Shown here piece by piece: positions 1 through 7,302 of a stretch of DNA of 7,302 bases. Position numbers and translations under genes: made by a program. The stretch lies in IMG/VR virus record IMGVR_UViG_2585427776_000005; one strand, written 5' to 3'. Below the pieces are notes generated by a model, which was given only the letters and a program-made list of their open reading frames with translations, searched no databases and was not told where the DNA came from. Each line of letters starts with the position of its first letter. Position 1 is the stretch's first letter. This DNA is from a virus (taxonomy: Duplodnaviria > Heunggongvirae > Uroviricota > Caudoviricetes).

Positions 1-1923
1 AAATGGCCCGAAATTCAGGCAGAGATGCGCATCTGGAAAAAACGTCGCGAAGGTGAACGCAAGGAAACCGGAAAATACACGTCTGTTGTTGATCTCGCCC
101 GCGCCAGAGCCAATCAACAGTACACTGAAAATTCAACAGGAAAAATCAGCCCGGTCATTGCTGCCATTCATCGCGAATACAAGCAGACATGGAAAACACT
201 GGATGACGAACTGGCCTACGCTCTCTGGCCTGGTGATGTGGATGCCGGAAACATTGACGGCAGCATCCATCGCTGGGCAAAAAAAGAAGTTATCGACAAC
301 GACCGCGAAGACTGGAAGCGTATCTCGGCATCAATGCGCAAACAGCCTGATGCCCTTCGCTACGACCGCCAAACTATTTTTGGCCTTGTCCGTGAGCGTC
401 CGATCGACATTCACAAAGATCCCGTAGCACTGAACAAATATATCTGCGAATACCTGACGACAAAGGGCGTGTTTGAGAATGAAGAAACAGACCTGGGCAC
501 TGTTGATGTTCTCCAGTCATCAGAAACACAAACTGATGCAGTGGAAACTGAGGTATCTGATATCCCAAAAAATGAAACCGCGCCGGAAGCTGAACCATCT
601 GTAGAGCGTGAGGGGCCGTTCTATTTCCTCTTCGCAGATAAGGACGGAGAAAAATACGGTCGCGCAAACAAACTCTCTGGTCTGGATAAGGCACTGGCTG
701 CTGGCGCCACTGAAATCACAAAAGAAGAATATTTTGCCCGAAAAAATGGCACATACACGGGCTTACCGCAAAATGTAGATACCGCTGAAGATTCAGAACA
801 ACCAGAGCCGATAAAAGTTACCGCTGACGAAGTAAACAAAATTATGCAGGCAGCCAATATCAGCCAGCCTGACGCCGATAAGTTGCTTGCTGCATCACGT
901 GGTGAATTTGTTGAAGGGATTAGTGACCCGAATGATCCGAAATGGGTTAAGGGGCTCCAGACCCGCGATTCTGTGAACCAGAACCAGCATGAATCGGAAC
1001 GGAACTACCAAAAAGCGGAACAAAACAGTCCAAATGCGTTACAAAACGAGCCAGAAACGAAACAGCCTGAACCAGTAGCGCAACAGGAAGTGGAAAAAGT
1101 CTGCACCGCCTGCGGTCAGACCGGCGGCGGCAACTGCCCTGATTGTGGCGCGGTGATGGGCGACGCAACATACCAAGAAACATTCGATGAAGAGTATCAG
1201 GTTGAAGTTCAGGAAGATGATCCGGAGGAAATGGAAGGCGCTGAACATCCACACAAGGAGAACACTGGCGGCAATCAGCATCACAATAGCGATAATGAAA
1301 CTGGCGAGACGGCAGATCACCCAATTAAGGTGAACGGTCATCACGAAATCACATCCACCAGCAGGACGTGTGACCATCTAATGATCGACCTTGAAACCAT
1401 GGGAAAAAATCCTGATGCCCCGATCATCTCAATAGGTGCAATATTTTTCGATCCGCAAACCGGAGATATGGGACCGGAATTTAGTAAGACTATCGATCTG
1501 GAAACTGCTGGCGGAGTCATTGATCGGGACACCATTAAATGGTGGCTTAAGCAATCACGCGAAGCGCAATCTGCCATTATGACCGATGAAATCCCGTTAG
1601 ATGATGCACTGTTACAATTGCGAGAATTTATCGACGAAAACTCCGGTGAATTTTTTGTTCAGGTTTGGGGAAATGGAGCCAACTTCGACAACACGATTTT
1701 GCGCCGTTCATACGAACGGCAGGGGATCCCCTGCCCGTGGCGTTACTACAACGATCGCGATGTACGCACAATCGTTGAGCTGGGGAAAGCCATAGACTTC
1801 GATGCCAGAACGGCTATTCCATTCGAAGGTGAGCGCCATAATGCACTTGATGACGCCCGTTACCAGGCAAAATACGTTTCAGTTATCTGGCAAAAACTGA
1901 TCCCGAGTCAGGCTGATTCTTAA
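1..1923 (+). CDS. Prophage RecE-family exonuclease (exodeoxyribonuclease VIII-like), 5'-partial, with central C4 zinc ribbon and C-terminal DEDDh (DnaQ-like) 3'-5' exonuclease domain
   Basis: Reading frame is open from base 1 (no stop upstream of the ATG at 25), so the true start is probably outside the window; stop TAA at 1921-1923. Residues encoded at 877-969 (DKLLAASRGEFVEGISDPNDPKWVKGLQTRD) match a segment I recall from Rac RecE. Residues from 1381 onward carry DEDDh motifs: D-L-E-T (exo I), GNGANFD (exo II), H-N-A-L-D-D (exo III). CxxC-x9-CxxC at 1102-1146. Confidence 0.8.
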   Translation, partial: KWPEIQAEMRIWKKRREGERKETGKYTSVVDLARARANQQYTENSTGKISPVIAAIHREYKQTWKTLDDELAYALWPGDVDAGNIDGSIHRWAKKEVIDNDREDWKRISASMRKQPDALRYDRQTIFGLVRERPIDIHKDPVALNKYICEYLTTKGVFENEETDLGTVDVLQSSETQTDAVETEVSDIPKNETAPEAEPSVEREGPFYFLFADKDGEKYGRANKLSGLDKALAAGATEITKEEYFARKNGTYTGLPQNVDTAEDSEQPEPIKVTADEVNKIMQAANISQPDADKLLAASRGEFVEGISDPNDPKWVKGLQTRDSVNQNQHESERNYQKAEQNSPNALQNEPETKQPEPVAQQEVEKVCTACGQTGGGNCPDCGAVMGDATYQETFDEEYQVEVQEDDPEEMEGAEHPHKENTGGNQHHNSDNETGETADHPIKVNGHHEITSTSRTCDHLMIDLETMGKNPDAPIISIGAIFFDPQTGDMGPEFSKTIDLETAGGVIDRDTIKWWLKQSREAQSAIMTDEIPLDDALLQLREFIDENSGEFFVQVWGNGANFDNTILRRSYERQGIPCPWRYYNDRDVRTIVELGKAIDFDARTAIPFEGERHNALDDARYQAKYVSVIWQKLIPSQADS

Positions 1924-1934
1924 TGTTCAACTGT

Positions 1935-1966
1935 CGCCGGTTGTGACTGGTATTCTGCAACCGGCG
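1935..1966 (+). repeat. Perfect inverted repeat (9-bp arms CGCCGGTTG / CAACCGGCG, 14-nt spacer) in the exonuclease-xis intergenic region; possible hairpin or protein-binding palindrome
   Basis: Arms at 1935-1943 and 1958-1966 are exact reverse complements. No T-tract follows, so it is not a canonical intrinsic terminator. Confidence 0.35.
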
Positions 1967-1995
1967 CTCGTCTGATGTAAGAGATAAAGAAATCG

Positions 1996-2247
1996 ATGAG
2001 CGAAGTAATCATGATTGTCTCTCCCGGCAAATGGGTATCCGAAGAGCAGTTAATTGCGCTGAAAGGAATAAAAAAAGGTACGTTAAAAAAGGCCCGGGAA
2101 AAATCGTTTATGGAAGGAAGGGAATATAAGCATGTCGCTCATGACGGTATGCCATGGGATAACAGTCCATGCTTTTACAACCTGGAAGAAATTGATCGCT
2201 GGATTGAGCGCCAGGCATCAGCGAGACCAAGACGTCATCTTACTTGA
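1996..2247 (+). CDS. xis: Excisionase-like small DNA-binding protein (Xis-like), 83 aa
   Basis: Small basic ORF immediately upstream of and co-oriented with the integrase; contains a GREY motif like the DGREY of lambda Xis. Purine-rich stretch AAGAGATAAAGAAA precedes the ATG at 1996; an alternative in-frame ATG lies at 2011. Stop TGA at 2245-2247. Confidence 0.55.
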   Translation: MSEVIMIVSPGKWVSEEQLIALKGIKKGTLKKAREKSFMEGREYKHVAHDGMPWDNSPCFYNLEEIDRWIERQASARPRRHLT

Positions 2248-2281
2248 CTAAAAGCCACACTAACTAATGAGAGAAGTTGAA

Positions 2282-3562
2282 ATGAAATATCCGACAGGCG
2301 TGGAAAACCATGGAGGGAAATTACGTATCTGGTTTGTTTATAAAGACGTAAGAGTCAGGGAAAATCTGGGGGTTCCTGACACAGCAAAAAACAGGCGCGT
2401 TGCAGGTGAACTACGCTCCTCTGTTTGTTACGCAATAAAAACTGGTGTTTTCGACTATGCAAAACAGTTTCCCTCCTCACGCAATCTGGAAAAATTTGGT
2501 GAGGCCCGACAAGATTTAACCATAAAAGAACTGGCTGAAAAATTTCTGGCACTGAAAGAAACTGAAGTCGCCAAAACATCACTCAACACATACCGTGCCG
2601 TCATCAAAAATATCCTGAGCATAATCGGTGAAAAAAATCTTGCCTCATCGATTAATAAAGAAAAATTACTGGAGGTTCGTAAAGAGTTACTGACTGGATA
2701 CCAGATCCCCAAAAGTAACTATATTGTTACACAACCAGGGAGATCGGCTGTAACTGTAAATAATTACATGACAAATCTTAACGCCGTGTTCCAGTTTGGT
2801 GTTGATAACGGTTACCTGGCAGATAATCCGTTTAAGGGGATCTCGCCATTAAAGGAATCAAGAACCATTCCGGATCCTCTTTCGCGGGAAGAATTTATCC
2901 GTCTTATCGATGCGTGCAGAAATCAGCAAGCAAAAAATTTATGGTGTGTTTCTGTTTATACTGGAGTTCGCCCTGGTGAGCTGTGTGCACTTGGATGGGA
3001 GGACATAGATCTGAAAAATGGAACAATGATGATCAGGAGAAATTTAGCAAAAGACCGTTTCACGGTACCAAAAACACAGGCGGGAACCAATCGGGGCATT
3101 CATCTTATTAAGCCAGCAATCGACGCTCTCCGGAGTCAGATGACATTAACGAGACTGAGCAAAGAGCATATCATTGATGTTCACCTCAGAGAGTATGGCA
3201 GAACAGAAAAACAAAAATGCACCTTTGTTTTTCAACCTGAAGTGTCAGCGAGAGTAAAAAATTATGGTGACCATTTTACCGTTGACTCAATAAGGCAGAT
3301 GTGGGACGCAGCGATAAAACGTGCCGGACTCCGCCATCGAAAATCATATCAGTCGAGACATACTTATGCCTGCTGGTCGCTGACAGCTGGTGCTAACCCG
3401 GCATTTATAGCAAACCAGATGGGCCATGCAGATGCGCAAATGGTATTTCAGGTATACGGAAAATGGATGTCTGAAAACAATAATGCACAGGTAGCTTTGT
3501 TAAATACACAGTTAAGCGAGTTTGCCCCAACCATGCCCCATAACGAAGCAATGAAAAATTAA
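2282..3562 (+). CDS. int: Phage integrase, tyrosine recombinase (lambda Int family; positional counterpart of E. coli K-12 Qin intQ, here apparently intact)
   Basis: 426-aa ORF. C-terminal catalytic region has TGVRPGELCALGWEDIDL (box I Arg), SRHTYACW (box II) and GHADAQMVFQVY, which has the same His-to-Tyr spacing as lambda Int (GH + 9 residues + Y). Start placed at the ATG at 2282 (MKYPTGVE..., preceded by GAGAGAAG) rather than the track's ATG at 2267; both are possible. Stop TAA at 3560-3562. Confidence 0.9.
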   Translation: MKYPTGVENHGGKLRIWFVYKDVRVRENLGVPDTAKNRRVAGELRSSVCYAIKTGVFDYAKQFPSSRNLEKFGEARQDLTIKELAEKFLALKETEVAKTSLNTYRAVIKNILSIIGEKNLASSINKEKLLEVRKELLTGYQIPKSNYIVTQPGRSAVTVNNYMTNLNAVFQFGVDNGYLADNPFKGISPLKESRTIPDPLSREEFIRLIDACRNQQAKNLWCVSVYTGVRPGELCALGWEDIDLKNGTMMIRRNLAKDRFTVPKTQAGTNRGIHLIKPAIDALRSQMTLTRLSKEHIIDVHLREYGRTEKQKCTFVFQPEVSARVKNYGDHFTVDSIRQMWDAAIKRAGLRHRKSYQSRHTYACWSLTAGANPAFIANQMGHADAQMVFQVYGKWMSENNNAQVALLNTQLSEFAPTMPHNEAMKN

Positions 3563-3749
3563 TTTAATATTTATCAAATAGTTAACACGCATGACTCTTG
3601 AAATCCATAAATTCAAGCGCAGTGCCCAGCCATCCCGATACTGCTGCTTTCACCAAATCCTTAGTGCTTCTTTCGTGTTTTTCTATTGTCATAATGGTTA
3701 TCTCTAAAAAAGAGGTAAGATGCGTACTACTTACTCGCCGTTATTGGTA
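3563..3749. other. Prophage/chromosome junction region; candidate attachment-site (attL or attR) location
   Basis: AT-rich non-coding stretch between the integrase stop and the 3' end of the core gene rspB. Lambdoid integrases normally sit next to att. The core sequence cannot be defined without the other prophage end. Confidence 0.35.
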
Positions 3750-4769
3750 TTATTCAGAAAAAGTGAGTAAGACTTTGCAGCAATGTTTTTGATCCTGTTC
3801 AAATAAACTAATGGCATCAGCAACATGCTGGAAATCAAACGTATGGGTAATTAATTTTTCTGGTTTAATTAACCCTTTACTTAACCAGTCGATAACGATC
3901 GGGAATTTATTTGCATTTAAGCGTGAAGAGAAAATAGAGAGTTCTTTTCCGGTAATTCCTTGCTGAATCACTTCAGACGGTTCACTGGAGAACCCCATCA
4001 ATACAATACGTGCCGCTGGAGAAGCCAGCGTTACGGCCTCTTTCAGGATAGAAGGATGACAAGCCGCATCGATAATTAATGTCGGCTTGATGCCTTTTTC
4101 AGTGAAAATCTCGCCAAGCGGTGTCTGGCTGTTATTAATCGCCCAGTCAGCCCCGCTCTCTTTCGCTTTTTCCAGTCGTTCATCAATGCGATCGGCAACA
4201 ATCACATTTTTAACGTTATAGACGCCTTTTAATACCTGAACGATCGTCAGGCCGATTGGACCGGCACCATAAACCAGAACGGTATCATTTTCAGTCGGTT
4301 GACCATGTCCGGTTACGTTAGCCGCAATGGTAAAAGGTTCGATCATTACCGCATATTGATCGGCCACTGCTTCAGGAATTTTCCACGCATTTTTTGCCGG
4401 AACCACGGCATATTCACTGAAACCACCGTCAGCGTGCACACCTAATACAGCCAGTGTCGTACAAACGTTCGGTTTACCTATAGAGCACGGATAGCAATGC
4501 CCACAGCTGACCACCGGATCGACAGCAACACGTTCACCGACTCTGGCGCTTTCCACGCCTTCACCCACTGCATCAATGACGCCAAAGAATTCATGACCAA
4601 TGACGCGCGGATATTTCGCAAAAGGATTATGCCCACGATAAATATGGCTATCTGAACCACAAATTCCGGCAAGTTTCACTTTTACTCGTACTTCACCCGC
4701 TGACGGGGTGGGTATTTCACGTTCGACAATCGCCAGTTGATTCGGTTTTTCAATTAATATGCTTTTCAT
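3750..4769 (-). CDS. rspB: Starvation-sensing protein RspB, zinc-dependent medium-chain alcohol dehydrogenase family
   Basis: Translation MKSILIEKPNQLAIVEREIPTPSAGEVRVKVKLAGICGSDSHIYRGH...KVLLTFSE is recognised as E. coli RspB (339 aa). It has a GHE zinc-ligand motif, a CGHCYPC structural-zinc motif and a GAGPIG NAD(P)-binding motif. Start ATG at 4767-4769 is preceded by GGAG; the track's upstream GTG extension is not needed. Confidence 0.95.
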   Translation of the reverse strand: MKSILIEKPNQLAIVEREIPTPSAGEVRVKVKLAGICGSDSHIYRGHNPFAKYPRVIGHEFFGVIDAVGEGVESARVGERVAVDPVVSCGHCYPCSIGKPNVCTTLAVLGVHADGGFSEYAVVPAKNAWKIPEAVADQYAVMIEPFTIAANVTGHGQPTENDTVLVYGAGPIGLTIVQVLKGVYNVKNVIVADRIDERLEKAKESGADWAINNSQTPLGEIFTEKGIKPTLIIDAACHPSILKEAVTLASPAARIVLMGFSSEPSEVIQQGITGKELSIFSSRLNANKFPIVIDWLSKGLIKPEKLITHTFDFQHVADAISLFEQDQKHCCKVLLTFSE

Positions 4770-4780
4770 TATCTTACTCC

Positions 4781-5995
4781 TTACCAGTTCCACAGCGTGC
4801 CATCTTCCAGACGTGCGACTGGTAGATAAGCAGGTTCATAGGGATATTTCGCCGCCAGCTTTTCATCGAATTCGATACCAAGACCCGGTTTGTCTCCCGG
4901 ATGCATATAGCCGTTATCGAAAGTCCAGTTGTGCGGGAAGACTTCGAGCATTTGTTCGGAATAACCCATGTATTCCTGGACACCGAAATTGGGGACCCAC
5001 AGATCAAAGTGCAGCGCCGCAGCCATGCAGACTGGTGACAAATCGGAAGGACCGTGTGAGCCAGTACGTACCTGATACAGCGAAGCAAAATCGGCAATCC
5101 GGCGCATACCGGTAATTCCGCCTGCATGGGTCAGCGTGGTGCGGATATAATCGATGAGTTGCTCTTCAATCAGTTGTTTGCAGTCCCAGATGCTGTTGAA
5201 GACTTCACCCACTGCGATGGGTGTGACGGTATGTTGGCGAATGAGACGGAAGCATTCCTGGTTTTCCGCAGGCGTCGGGTCTTCCATCCAGAACATGCGA
5301 TAATCTTCAATGCTTTTACCAAAGCGCGCCGCTTCAATAGGCGTTAAGCGATGGTGCATGTCATGCAGCAAATGTTCATTAAAACCAAACTTGTTACGTA
5401 CCGCGTCAAACAATTTCGGCATGAAATCGAGGTATTTCTCCGTCGACCACAGCTGCTCTTCCGGCCACTGTCCTTTGGTTGCGGGTTCATAAGCCAGACC
5501 TTTACCTTTCGACATGCCGTAGGTGGTTTTCATACCAGGGATTCCGCACTGCACGCGGATGGCTTTGAATCCAAGCTCTTGATGACGGGCATAATCATCC
5601 AGAGCTTCATCAATACTGTGACCGGTGGTATGGCAATAAACCATCACCCCTTCACGAGACGCGCCGCCGAGTAACTGGTAAAGCGGCATGTTGGCAGCTT
5701 TGGCTTTAATATCCCACAGCGCCATATCAACCGCTGAAATGGCCGACATCGTAACCGGACCGCGACGCCAGTAAGCACCTTTATAGAAAAACTGCCAGAT
5801 ATCTTCGATACGGTGCGCATCGCGACCAATAAGCTGCGGACAAAGGTGATCCTGCAAATAAGAGGCCACGGAAAGCTCACGTCCATTGAGGGTGGCATCC
5901 CCAAGGCCCGTAATACCGTCCTCAGTGGTGATTTTTAATGTGACGAAATTACGCCCCGGACAGGTAACAAAAACTTCAGCCTTTACGATCTTCAT
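4781..5995 (-). CDS. rspA: Starvation-sensing protein RspA, enolase-superfamily mannonate dehydratase-like enzyme
   Basis: Translation [40 protein letters not shown]...[11 protein letters not shown] is recognised as E. coli RspA (404 aa). Start ATG at 5993-5995 is preceded by AAGGA at about 7 nt. Stop TAA at 4781-4783 lies 11 nt upstream of the rspB start, so the two genes form an operon. Confidence 0.95.
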
Positions 5996-6200
5996 GTTCG
6001 ATTCCTTGCATCGCTTGTCGTGATGCATGAAATCTACGCAACTGAGCTACTACCATACAAGTATAAAGATCGAAAAAAGCCGGAGTGATCACAAAAAAAG
6101 GCGTATATTTGCGCTGTGAATGGTTGACAAAAGATGAAATAGAATACCTTTTGTCAGCTGACACTTCCTCTTATCTTATTGATAAAATGGATTTATGTTC
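5996..6200 (-). promoter_or_regulatory. rspA 5' UTR and promoter region (ynfA-rspA intergenic)
   Basis: Non-coding interval upstream of rspA on the - strand. Candidate sigma70-like elements on the - strand: -35 TTGTCA (complement of 6125-6130), 17-bp spacer, -10 TATACG (complement of 6102-6107); also a TATACT hexamer (complement of 6060-6065). Compressed palindrome GTGATCAC at 6085-6092. The transcription start site cannot be determined from sequence. Confidence 0.4.
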
Positions 6201-6512
6201 CTACGTGCGCCCCCAGCCCGCAACAATGATCAACATGCCGCAAAGCGCAATCAACGCACCCGTCCAGTCATAAAGAGTCAGTTTCACGCCATCCACAACG
6301 CGCAGCCACATCAACGCCGTGCAGACATAAACGCCACCATAAGCCGCGTAAACACGCCCACTCGCCGCTGGATGCAACGTTAACAACCAGACAAACAGCG
6401 CCAGTGAAATCCCCGCCGGAAGCAACAGCCAGATACTGGCGTTTCGTTTTAACCACAACCAGGGCAGAAAGCATCCAATAATTTCACACAGCGCAGTAGC
6501 AAAAAATAGTAA
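6201..6512 (-). pseudogene. ynfA: ynfA (UPF0060 family small inner-membrane protein), 5'-truncated: codons 6-108 retained, first 5 codons separated by an IS insertion
   Basis: Translation [44 protein letters not shown]...IIVAGWGRT matches E. coli YnfA from residue 6. Homology ends exactly at the IS left terminus (6512/6513). Stop TAG at 6201-6203 (complement). The track ORF only extends further through a TTG start inside the IS end. Confidence 0.8.
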
Positions 6513-6566
6513 TGAACCGCCCCGGGAATCCTGGAGACTAAACTTCCTGAGAAAGAGGTAAACAGG

Positions 6567-6893
6567 ATGACTAAAAATACTCGTTTTTCCCCCGAAGTCC
6601 GTCAACGGGCAGTCCGTATGGTTCTGGAAAGTCAGAGCGAATATGACTCACAATGGGCGACAATTTGTTCCATTGCTCCAAAGATTGGCTGTACGCCGGA
6701 GACTCTGCGTGTCTGGGTTCGCCAGCATGAGCGGGATACCGGGGGCGGTGATGGAGGGCTCACCACCGCTGAACGTCAGCGTCTGAAAGAGCTGGAACGT
6801 GAAAATCGTGAACTGCGCCGCAGTAACGATATCCTTCGCCAGGCTTCCGCTTATTTTGCGAAGGCGGAGTTCGACCGCCTCTGGAAAAAATGA
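6567..6893 (+). CDS. IS629 OrfA (IS3-family transposase N-terminal HTH/leucine-zipper subunit), 108 aa
   Basis: Translation [61 protein letters not shown]...[36 protein letters not shown] matches IS629/IS1203 OrfA. ATG at 6567 is preceded by GAGAAAGAGG; stop TGA at 6891-6893. Confidence 0.9.
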
Positions 6894-7302
6894 TGCCACT
6901 GCTGGATAAGCTGCGTGAGTAGTACGGGGTCGGACCGCTATGCAGCGAACTGCATATTGCCCCGTCAACGTATTACCACTGTCAGCAACAGCGACATCAT
7001 CCGGATAAACGCAGTGCCCGTGCGCAGCGCGATGACTGGCTGAAGAAAGAGATACAGCGCGTATACGATGAAAATCACAAGGTATACGGTGTGCGTAAAG
7101 TCTGGCGTCAGTTGTTACGGGAAGGTATCAGAGTGGCCAGATGCACTGTGGCACGTCTCATGGCGGTTATGGGACTTGCCGGTGTTCTCCGGGGTAAAAA
7201 GGTCCGTACGACCATCAGCCGGAAAGCCGTTGTCGCAGGCGACCGCGTAAACCGTCAGTTCGTGGCAGAACGACCTGACCAGCTGTGGGTGGCTGATTTT
7301 AC
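6890..7302 (+). pseudogene. IS629 orfB (DDE transposase catalytic subunit), 3'-partial, interrupted by an in-frame TAG at 6920-6922
   Basis: The -1 frame relative to orfA reads ATG ATG CCA CTG CTG GAT AAG CTG CGT GAG TAG ([10 protein letters not shown]), then continues without further stops as YGVGPLCSELHIAPSTYYHCQQQRHHPDKRSARAQRDDWLKKEIQRVYDENHKVYGVRKVWRQLL...DQLWVADF. That is IS629 OrfB-like sequence, in which I recall Gln (CAG) at the stop position. Confidence 0.65.

Follow-up and report, generated by a model that had tools for sequence, protein, structure and literature searches.

An IS629 copy in ynfA with an early amber codon in its transposase frame

Can an IS629 copy still make its transposase when the reading frame is closed after ten codons, and is such a stop anything other than decay? 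Both questions are raised by the right-hand end of the window, by which we mean the whole 7,302-bp stretch of DNA that was analysed, very probably a complete draft contig whose end lies within a multicopy repeat. Reading and translating this end directly, we recover the feature reported in a first-pass annotation, an in-frame amber codon ten codons into orfB. On the plus strand TAG stands at 6920-6922 in place of the CAG that encodes Gln11 of OrfB, owing to a C-to-T difference at 6920, as translation, alignment of copies and allele counts all indicate.

The IS629 copy and the gene it interrupts

By its sequence identity, ends, orfA, frameshift signals and orfB homology, the element is a canonical IS629 of the IS3 family. 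Its left 790 bp (IS positions 1-790 of 1310) fill 6513-7302 on the plus strand, where the contig stops within the element, and match intact 1310-bp copies at 788 of 790 bases (99.75% identity, two mismatches, no gaps). Intact copies of IS629 (isoforms IS1203 and IS3411), for example L001 and L008-L017, share every one of these bases save at two positions, at which the window has TAG for CAG at OrfB codon 11 and Val for Ala at 7233. Beyond the window lie the right 520 bp, with two of the three DDE residues and IRR.

The left end, TGAACCGCCCCGGGAATCC..., a terminal inverted repeat, begins at 6513, exactly where homology to uninterrupted ynfA stops. This repeat (IRL, TGAACCGCCCCGGGAATCCTGGAGA, 6513-6537, plus strand), which we take to be 25 bp long as in the description of IS629, is the same as the left ends of ten intact copies with different flanks, and is the reverse complement of the right end of intact copies, ...CCAGGAAACCCGGGGCGGTTCA. 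Intact relatives are flanked by target-site duplications of 3 bp (CCT, TGC, GGC), while the window itself lacks the right junction.

On the other side of the junction, positions 1-6512 are colinear, at 99.6-99.9% identity, with three public contigs in which rspB-rspA-ynfA is uninterrupted. The end of the element, TGAACCGCCCCGGG..., starts right after 6512, that is, past codon 5 of ynfA (MIKTT/LLFF...), and the insertion parts codons 1-5 and the promoter from the remainder. Aligned to loci with an intact gene (MIKTT/LLFFATAL...), the truncated ynfA occupies 6201-6512 on the minus strand. The remnant is annotated as an 85-aa product whose start is an internal TTG at 6458.

The ynfA::IS629 junction was absent from the complete E. 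coli genomes searched, and an exact scan of the GTDB representative genomes gave no match to it. Strain 582, the best match among complete E. coli genomes, was set aside as an instance of the same junction, its IS629 lying between rspA and ynfA and representing a different event. Database entries exist for the 85-aa truncated YnfA protein (KDT28036.1 and others), and through this product another contig, L007, came up as a candidate sibling; it was rejected, as its ynfA is disrupted differently. At positions 1-40 of that contig (Logan SRR32315696), unrelated sequence breaks ynfA near the equivalent of window position 6467 and yet leads to the same 85-aa gene call. Because a different break gives the same call, the truncated-YnfA accession is not specific to the IS629 insertion.

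Further upstream, positions 25-3562 hold a prophage remnant adjoining rspB. It encodes a tyrosine integrase (from 2267 or 2282 to 3562), a DUF1233 protein (1996-2247) and a protein of 632 aa whose C-terminal part is an Rv2179c-like exonuclease domain. In related contigs the corresponding region forms one end of a lambdoid (Qin-like) prophage with dicB, ydfE and relBE-type genes. Contigs carrying the 632-aa protein were also considered as siblings of the window and rejected, every one of them having an intact ynfA.

Frameshift signals and predicted products

As the first-pass annotation held, OrfA remains encoded. The ORF list gives an intact orfA of 108 aa (HTH_Tnp_1) at 6567-6893 on the plus strand, which matches Pfam PF01527 (E = 7e-13) and positions 1-86 of NCBIfam transpos_IS3 and is an orfA of the HTH DNA-binding kind; exactly this OrfA protein is very common in public assemblies. 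Its 3' end reads ...TGG AAA AAA TGA, with TGA at 6891-6893. In the -1 frame, orfB starts with ATG ATG at 6890-6895 and reads ATG ATG CCA CTG CTG GAT AAG CTG CGT GAG TAG, so that translation gives the first ten codons at 6890-6919 (plus strand) and then the amber codon. Directly past TAG the conserved OrfB sequence YGVGPLCSELHIAPSTYYHCQQQ... resumes and runs to the end of the window. Domain searches assign this remainder (6923-7302, plus strand) to OrfB residues 12-137, comprising HTH_21 (Pfam, E = 7e-19) and the first part of the rve/DDE core (WVADFT), and it matches positions 101-223 of NCBIfam transpos_IS3. In intact OrfB the Pfam domains are HTH_21 at residues 47-104 and rve at residues 127-223. 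An uninterrupted DDE (rve) orfB frame is lacking in the window, where TAG stands at codon 11 and the contig ends at the first rve residues.

Two candidate -1 shift motifs lie on the plus strand upstream of the stop. One, U_UUU_G (6854-6858), is read in the orfA frame as UAU UUU GCG and lies 5 nt upstream of a stem-loop. The other is a run of six A residues followed by U (AAAAAAU, 6885-6891), which shares bases with the orfA stop and with the orfB ATG (ATGA). Around both extends a full-length cmscan match to the ALIL frameshift-stimulating pseudoknot region (Rfam RF01497, 6848-6964, plus strand), scoring 120.1 bits where the gathering score is 50 (E = 1.3e-31), so that the region belongs to this family by the covariance model. 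In the IS3411-type ALIL a stem-loop stands near the 3' side of the shift site and its apical loop pairs with a downstream internal loop (PMC5009743), which belongs to a second stem-loop 44-104 nt downstream (PMC5009743). The same parts can be placed in the window. Stem-loop I (SLI, GGCGG/CCGCC, 6863-6879, plus strand) appears both in the Rfam structure line and in the minimum free energy (MFE) fold, and stem-loop II (SLII, 6925-6964, plus strand), with its internal loop at 6930-6935, follows from the Rfam structure line after a linker of 45 nt and begins 3 nt past TAG. As read from the sequence, the SLI apical loop GUUCGA (6869-6874) can form 6 bp with the SLII internal loop UCGGAC (6930-6935).

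The earlier annotation had taken the A-run as the shift site. The motif is there, although its 10-mer, GGAAAAAATG, is located at 6883-6892 and not at 6884-6892, but it is probably neither the only nor the main site. Because SLI sits 5 nt 3' of U_UUU_G, matching the ALIL architecture, we regard U_UUU_G as probably the better-supported shift site and the A-run as at best a second one. Chen and Hu reportedly described, in 2006, two IS629 frameshift products, with both shift sites in use.

Could the change at 6920 act through the RNA rather than through the codon? Disruption of the pseudoknot was considered and rejected, since the base belongs to the unpaired linker and the fold is predicted not to change: the TAG occupies a poorly conserved linker column of ALIL, 3 nt before SLII, and whichever of C or U stands at 6920, the MFE structure comes out the same, with SLI and SLII both kept. 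Compared with the ALIL of IS3411 (RF01497) the window has no structural difference, and the mutation alters only what a shifted ribosome decodes. The programmed -1 frameshift signal (U_UUU_G, A6U and ALIL) is in place and, going by the predicted structure, should still work.

What such a ribosome would make is constrained by the stops of the -1 frame, which lie at 6824-6826 and next at 6920-6922 and leave the frame open only over 6827-6919. A shift at 6857 would give 97 + 21 residues and a shift at 6890 would give 108 + 10, so that both predicted fusions end at 118 aa. Because both shift motifs are upstream of TAG, where the -1 frame is closed, any OrfAB fusion would end at about 118 aa, which upholds the original claim that such a fusion would terminate before the DDE domain. 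The fusion would keep the OrfA HTH and leucine zipper without the HTH_21 and DDE (rve) domains and, because these lie beyond the stop, everything that catalysis needs would be missing from it. Initiation at the orfB ATG alone would yield merely a 10-aa peptide.

The window copy is, then, IS629 by descent but defective, and the one respect in which it fails as an IS629 is the uninterrupted transposase frame. From the reading frames we infer that it supplies no transposase and is non-autonomous. At most it would contribute OrfA-like DNA-binding proteins, which lower transposition in IS3-family elements. Given OrfAB from another IS629 copy it could move if its right end is intact, and mobilisation in trans is plausible. 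The other route to movement would be a host with a glutamine-inserting amber suppressor (supE/glnV44); such a suppressor places glutamine at the amber codon and restores the exact wild-type transposase residue.

Origin of the amber codon

Ten complete IS629 copies (L008-L017), from ten unrelated loci in two genomes, differ from the window only at 6920 and 7233, and all ten have C at both positions (CAG, glutamine, at the first and GCC at the second). The first-pass annotation had allowed that reference IS629 might itself carry TAG here; when the comparison with reference IS629 was run, intact copies were found to carry CAG. Allele counts were obtained over 5,426 complete E. coli genomes with a 55-mer centred on 6920, so that no 28-base megablast seed word can leave this base out. 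The CAG form is present at 20,026 places in 3,294 of these genomes, against 6 places for the TAG form, which fall on three plasmid records of one plasmid family, also present in PLSDB. Together with the C at 6920 in intact copies, these counts bear out the proposal that TAG arose from CAG by a single C-to-T change. A TAG 32-mer had no match in GTDB representatives, in IMG/VR viral contigs or in the phage collection, and one match among metagenome contigs.

We put the probability at roughly 0.8 that this is an IS629 in ynfA in which one C-to-T change turned OrfB codon 11 from CAG into TAG and left a non-autonomous copy, by ordinary mutational decay. Nonsense-inactivated, point-mutated and non-autonomous IS copies are routine.

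The second difference from intact copies found by alignment, at 7233 on the plus strand, is again C-to-T and turns an Ala codon of orfB (GCC) into a Val codon (GTC). T7233 is a known minor allele, seen at 626 places in 543 genomes; it is common on plasmids (543 of the 626 places). The three T7233 copies sampled (L019-L021) belong to a different haplotype, which is set apart by 14 markers within the first 243 bp and by further ones at 7273 and 7283. None of these markers is present in the window, which pairs T7233 with A7273, 40 nt away, and with C7283; its T7233 appears to be independent of the plasmid haplotype.

That both differences are C-to-T on the same strand could reflect real decay, or it could reflect DNA damage or consensus error, and this brings up the reading in which T6920 is a consensus error or the product of collapsed multi-copy reads at a contig end, the real copy having CAG and being functional. 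The place is one at which such an error might be looked for, as the sequence is a short draft contig that stops within the IS, at IS position 790 (contig position 7302), 5 nt before the site 795/796 (...TTACG/TCAGC...) at which three intron-interrupted IS629 copies (L005, L014 and L015) carry a group II intron. This intron is about 2.26 kb long, starts with GTGTG and has an RT/maturase ORF (3741-6003 in L014 and L015, 6415-8677 in L005). Specific positions in IS629 and in related transposase genes are homing targets of intron E.c.I4 (PMC3522654), and the intron at 795/796 is probably E.c.I4. A contig that breaks 5 nt from the intron site points to a fork in the assembly, with some IS629 copies of the source genome carrying the intron and others free of it, and the copy in ynfA might be among the interrupted ones. 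Furthermore, no second assembly with the same ynfA::IS629 junction was found to confirm the base. Against this, consensus errors are rare at normal Illumina depth, and the same CAG-to-TAG change is present in finished plasmid sequences and in one metagenome contig, so it occurs naturally. Nor does a simple mixture of two known haplotypes reproduce T7233 with A7273 and C7283, a pairing that does not occur in the T7233 haplotype sampled; we take the combination of T7233 and A7273 to argue against a simple chimera of several copies. An error at 6920 is, on balance, unlikely.

The other TAG copies allow a further reading of where the base came from. On plasmids, PGAP calls these copies pseudogenes with an internal stop. 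Those of the pDLI.5a-type IncFII plasmids (NZ_CP103973.1, NZ_CP069095.1 and NZ_AP043640.1; CP056265.1 and CP056448.1) have the same amber codon at the same position as the window but, unlike it, have 17 SNPs in the first 243 bp, a Pro3Leu change and, between IS positions 795 and 796, a group II intron. That each plasmid shows two places is due to one segmental duplication, in which the copy is part of a larger segment. With the metagenome contig L006 the plasmid copies share a rare haplotype, distinguished by these 17 SNPs, which in complete genomes is seen essentially only with TAG. It was located at 1-1171 of L006 (QZLY01015118.1), at 5621-6415 of L005 and at 13661-14455 of L018. The haplotype occupies two insertion sites, one with an IS256 fragment as its neighbour (pDLI.5a-type plasmids) and one inside an IS66-family element (L006), which hints either at a dead copy mobilised in trans or at recurrent mutation.

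Could the window have received its TAG by gene conversion from such a copy, a member of a low-frequency non-autonomous lineage that uses the transposase of intact copies? The presence of the same codon on the rare haplotype at both of its insertion sites is in keeping with this, as is the match between the TAG copies and the window over IS positions 244-790, save for private SNPs. However, all 17 upstream marker sites in the window are of the other haplotype, no donor carrying both T6920 and T7233 was found, and a recurrent C-to-T change among more than 20,000 copies is simpler; we consider gene conversion very improbable, and either origin has the same functional outcome. A single conversion tract spanning T6920 and T7233 was rejected separately, for want of a donor with both bases. 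The most economical reading is of two independent C-to-T events in the window copy and of a separate small TAG lineage elsewhere, which may have moved in trans.

The stop as a functional feature, and the status of the copy

UAG followed by U is an efficient terminator in E. coli, and this is the context of the amber codon in the window. [quoted passage not shown] Just as little weight attaches to the notion that IS629 with an amber at codon 11 forms a small non-autonomous lineage, mobilised in trans and kept for an OrfA and a 118-aa fusion that damp IS629. Were such a damping lineage real, the same stop on two haplotypes and in three insertion contexts would amount to recurrent selection.

Returning to ordinary decay by point mutation, the finding bears mainly on annotation: the IS629 copy in the window is best entered as a pseudogene, or as non-autonomous (internal stop), and ynfA as disrupted, and otherwise the copy is of little importance. 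Where active IS629 copies are counted, as in work on IS629-driven genome change and IEE-mediated excision, it would enter as a possible substrate and not as a source of transposase.
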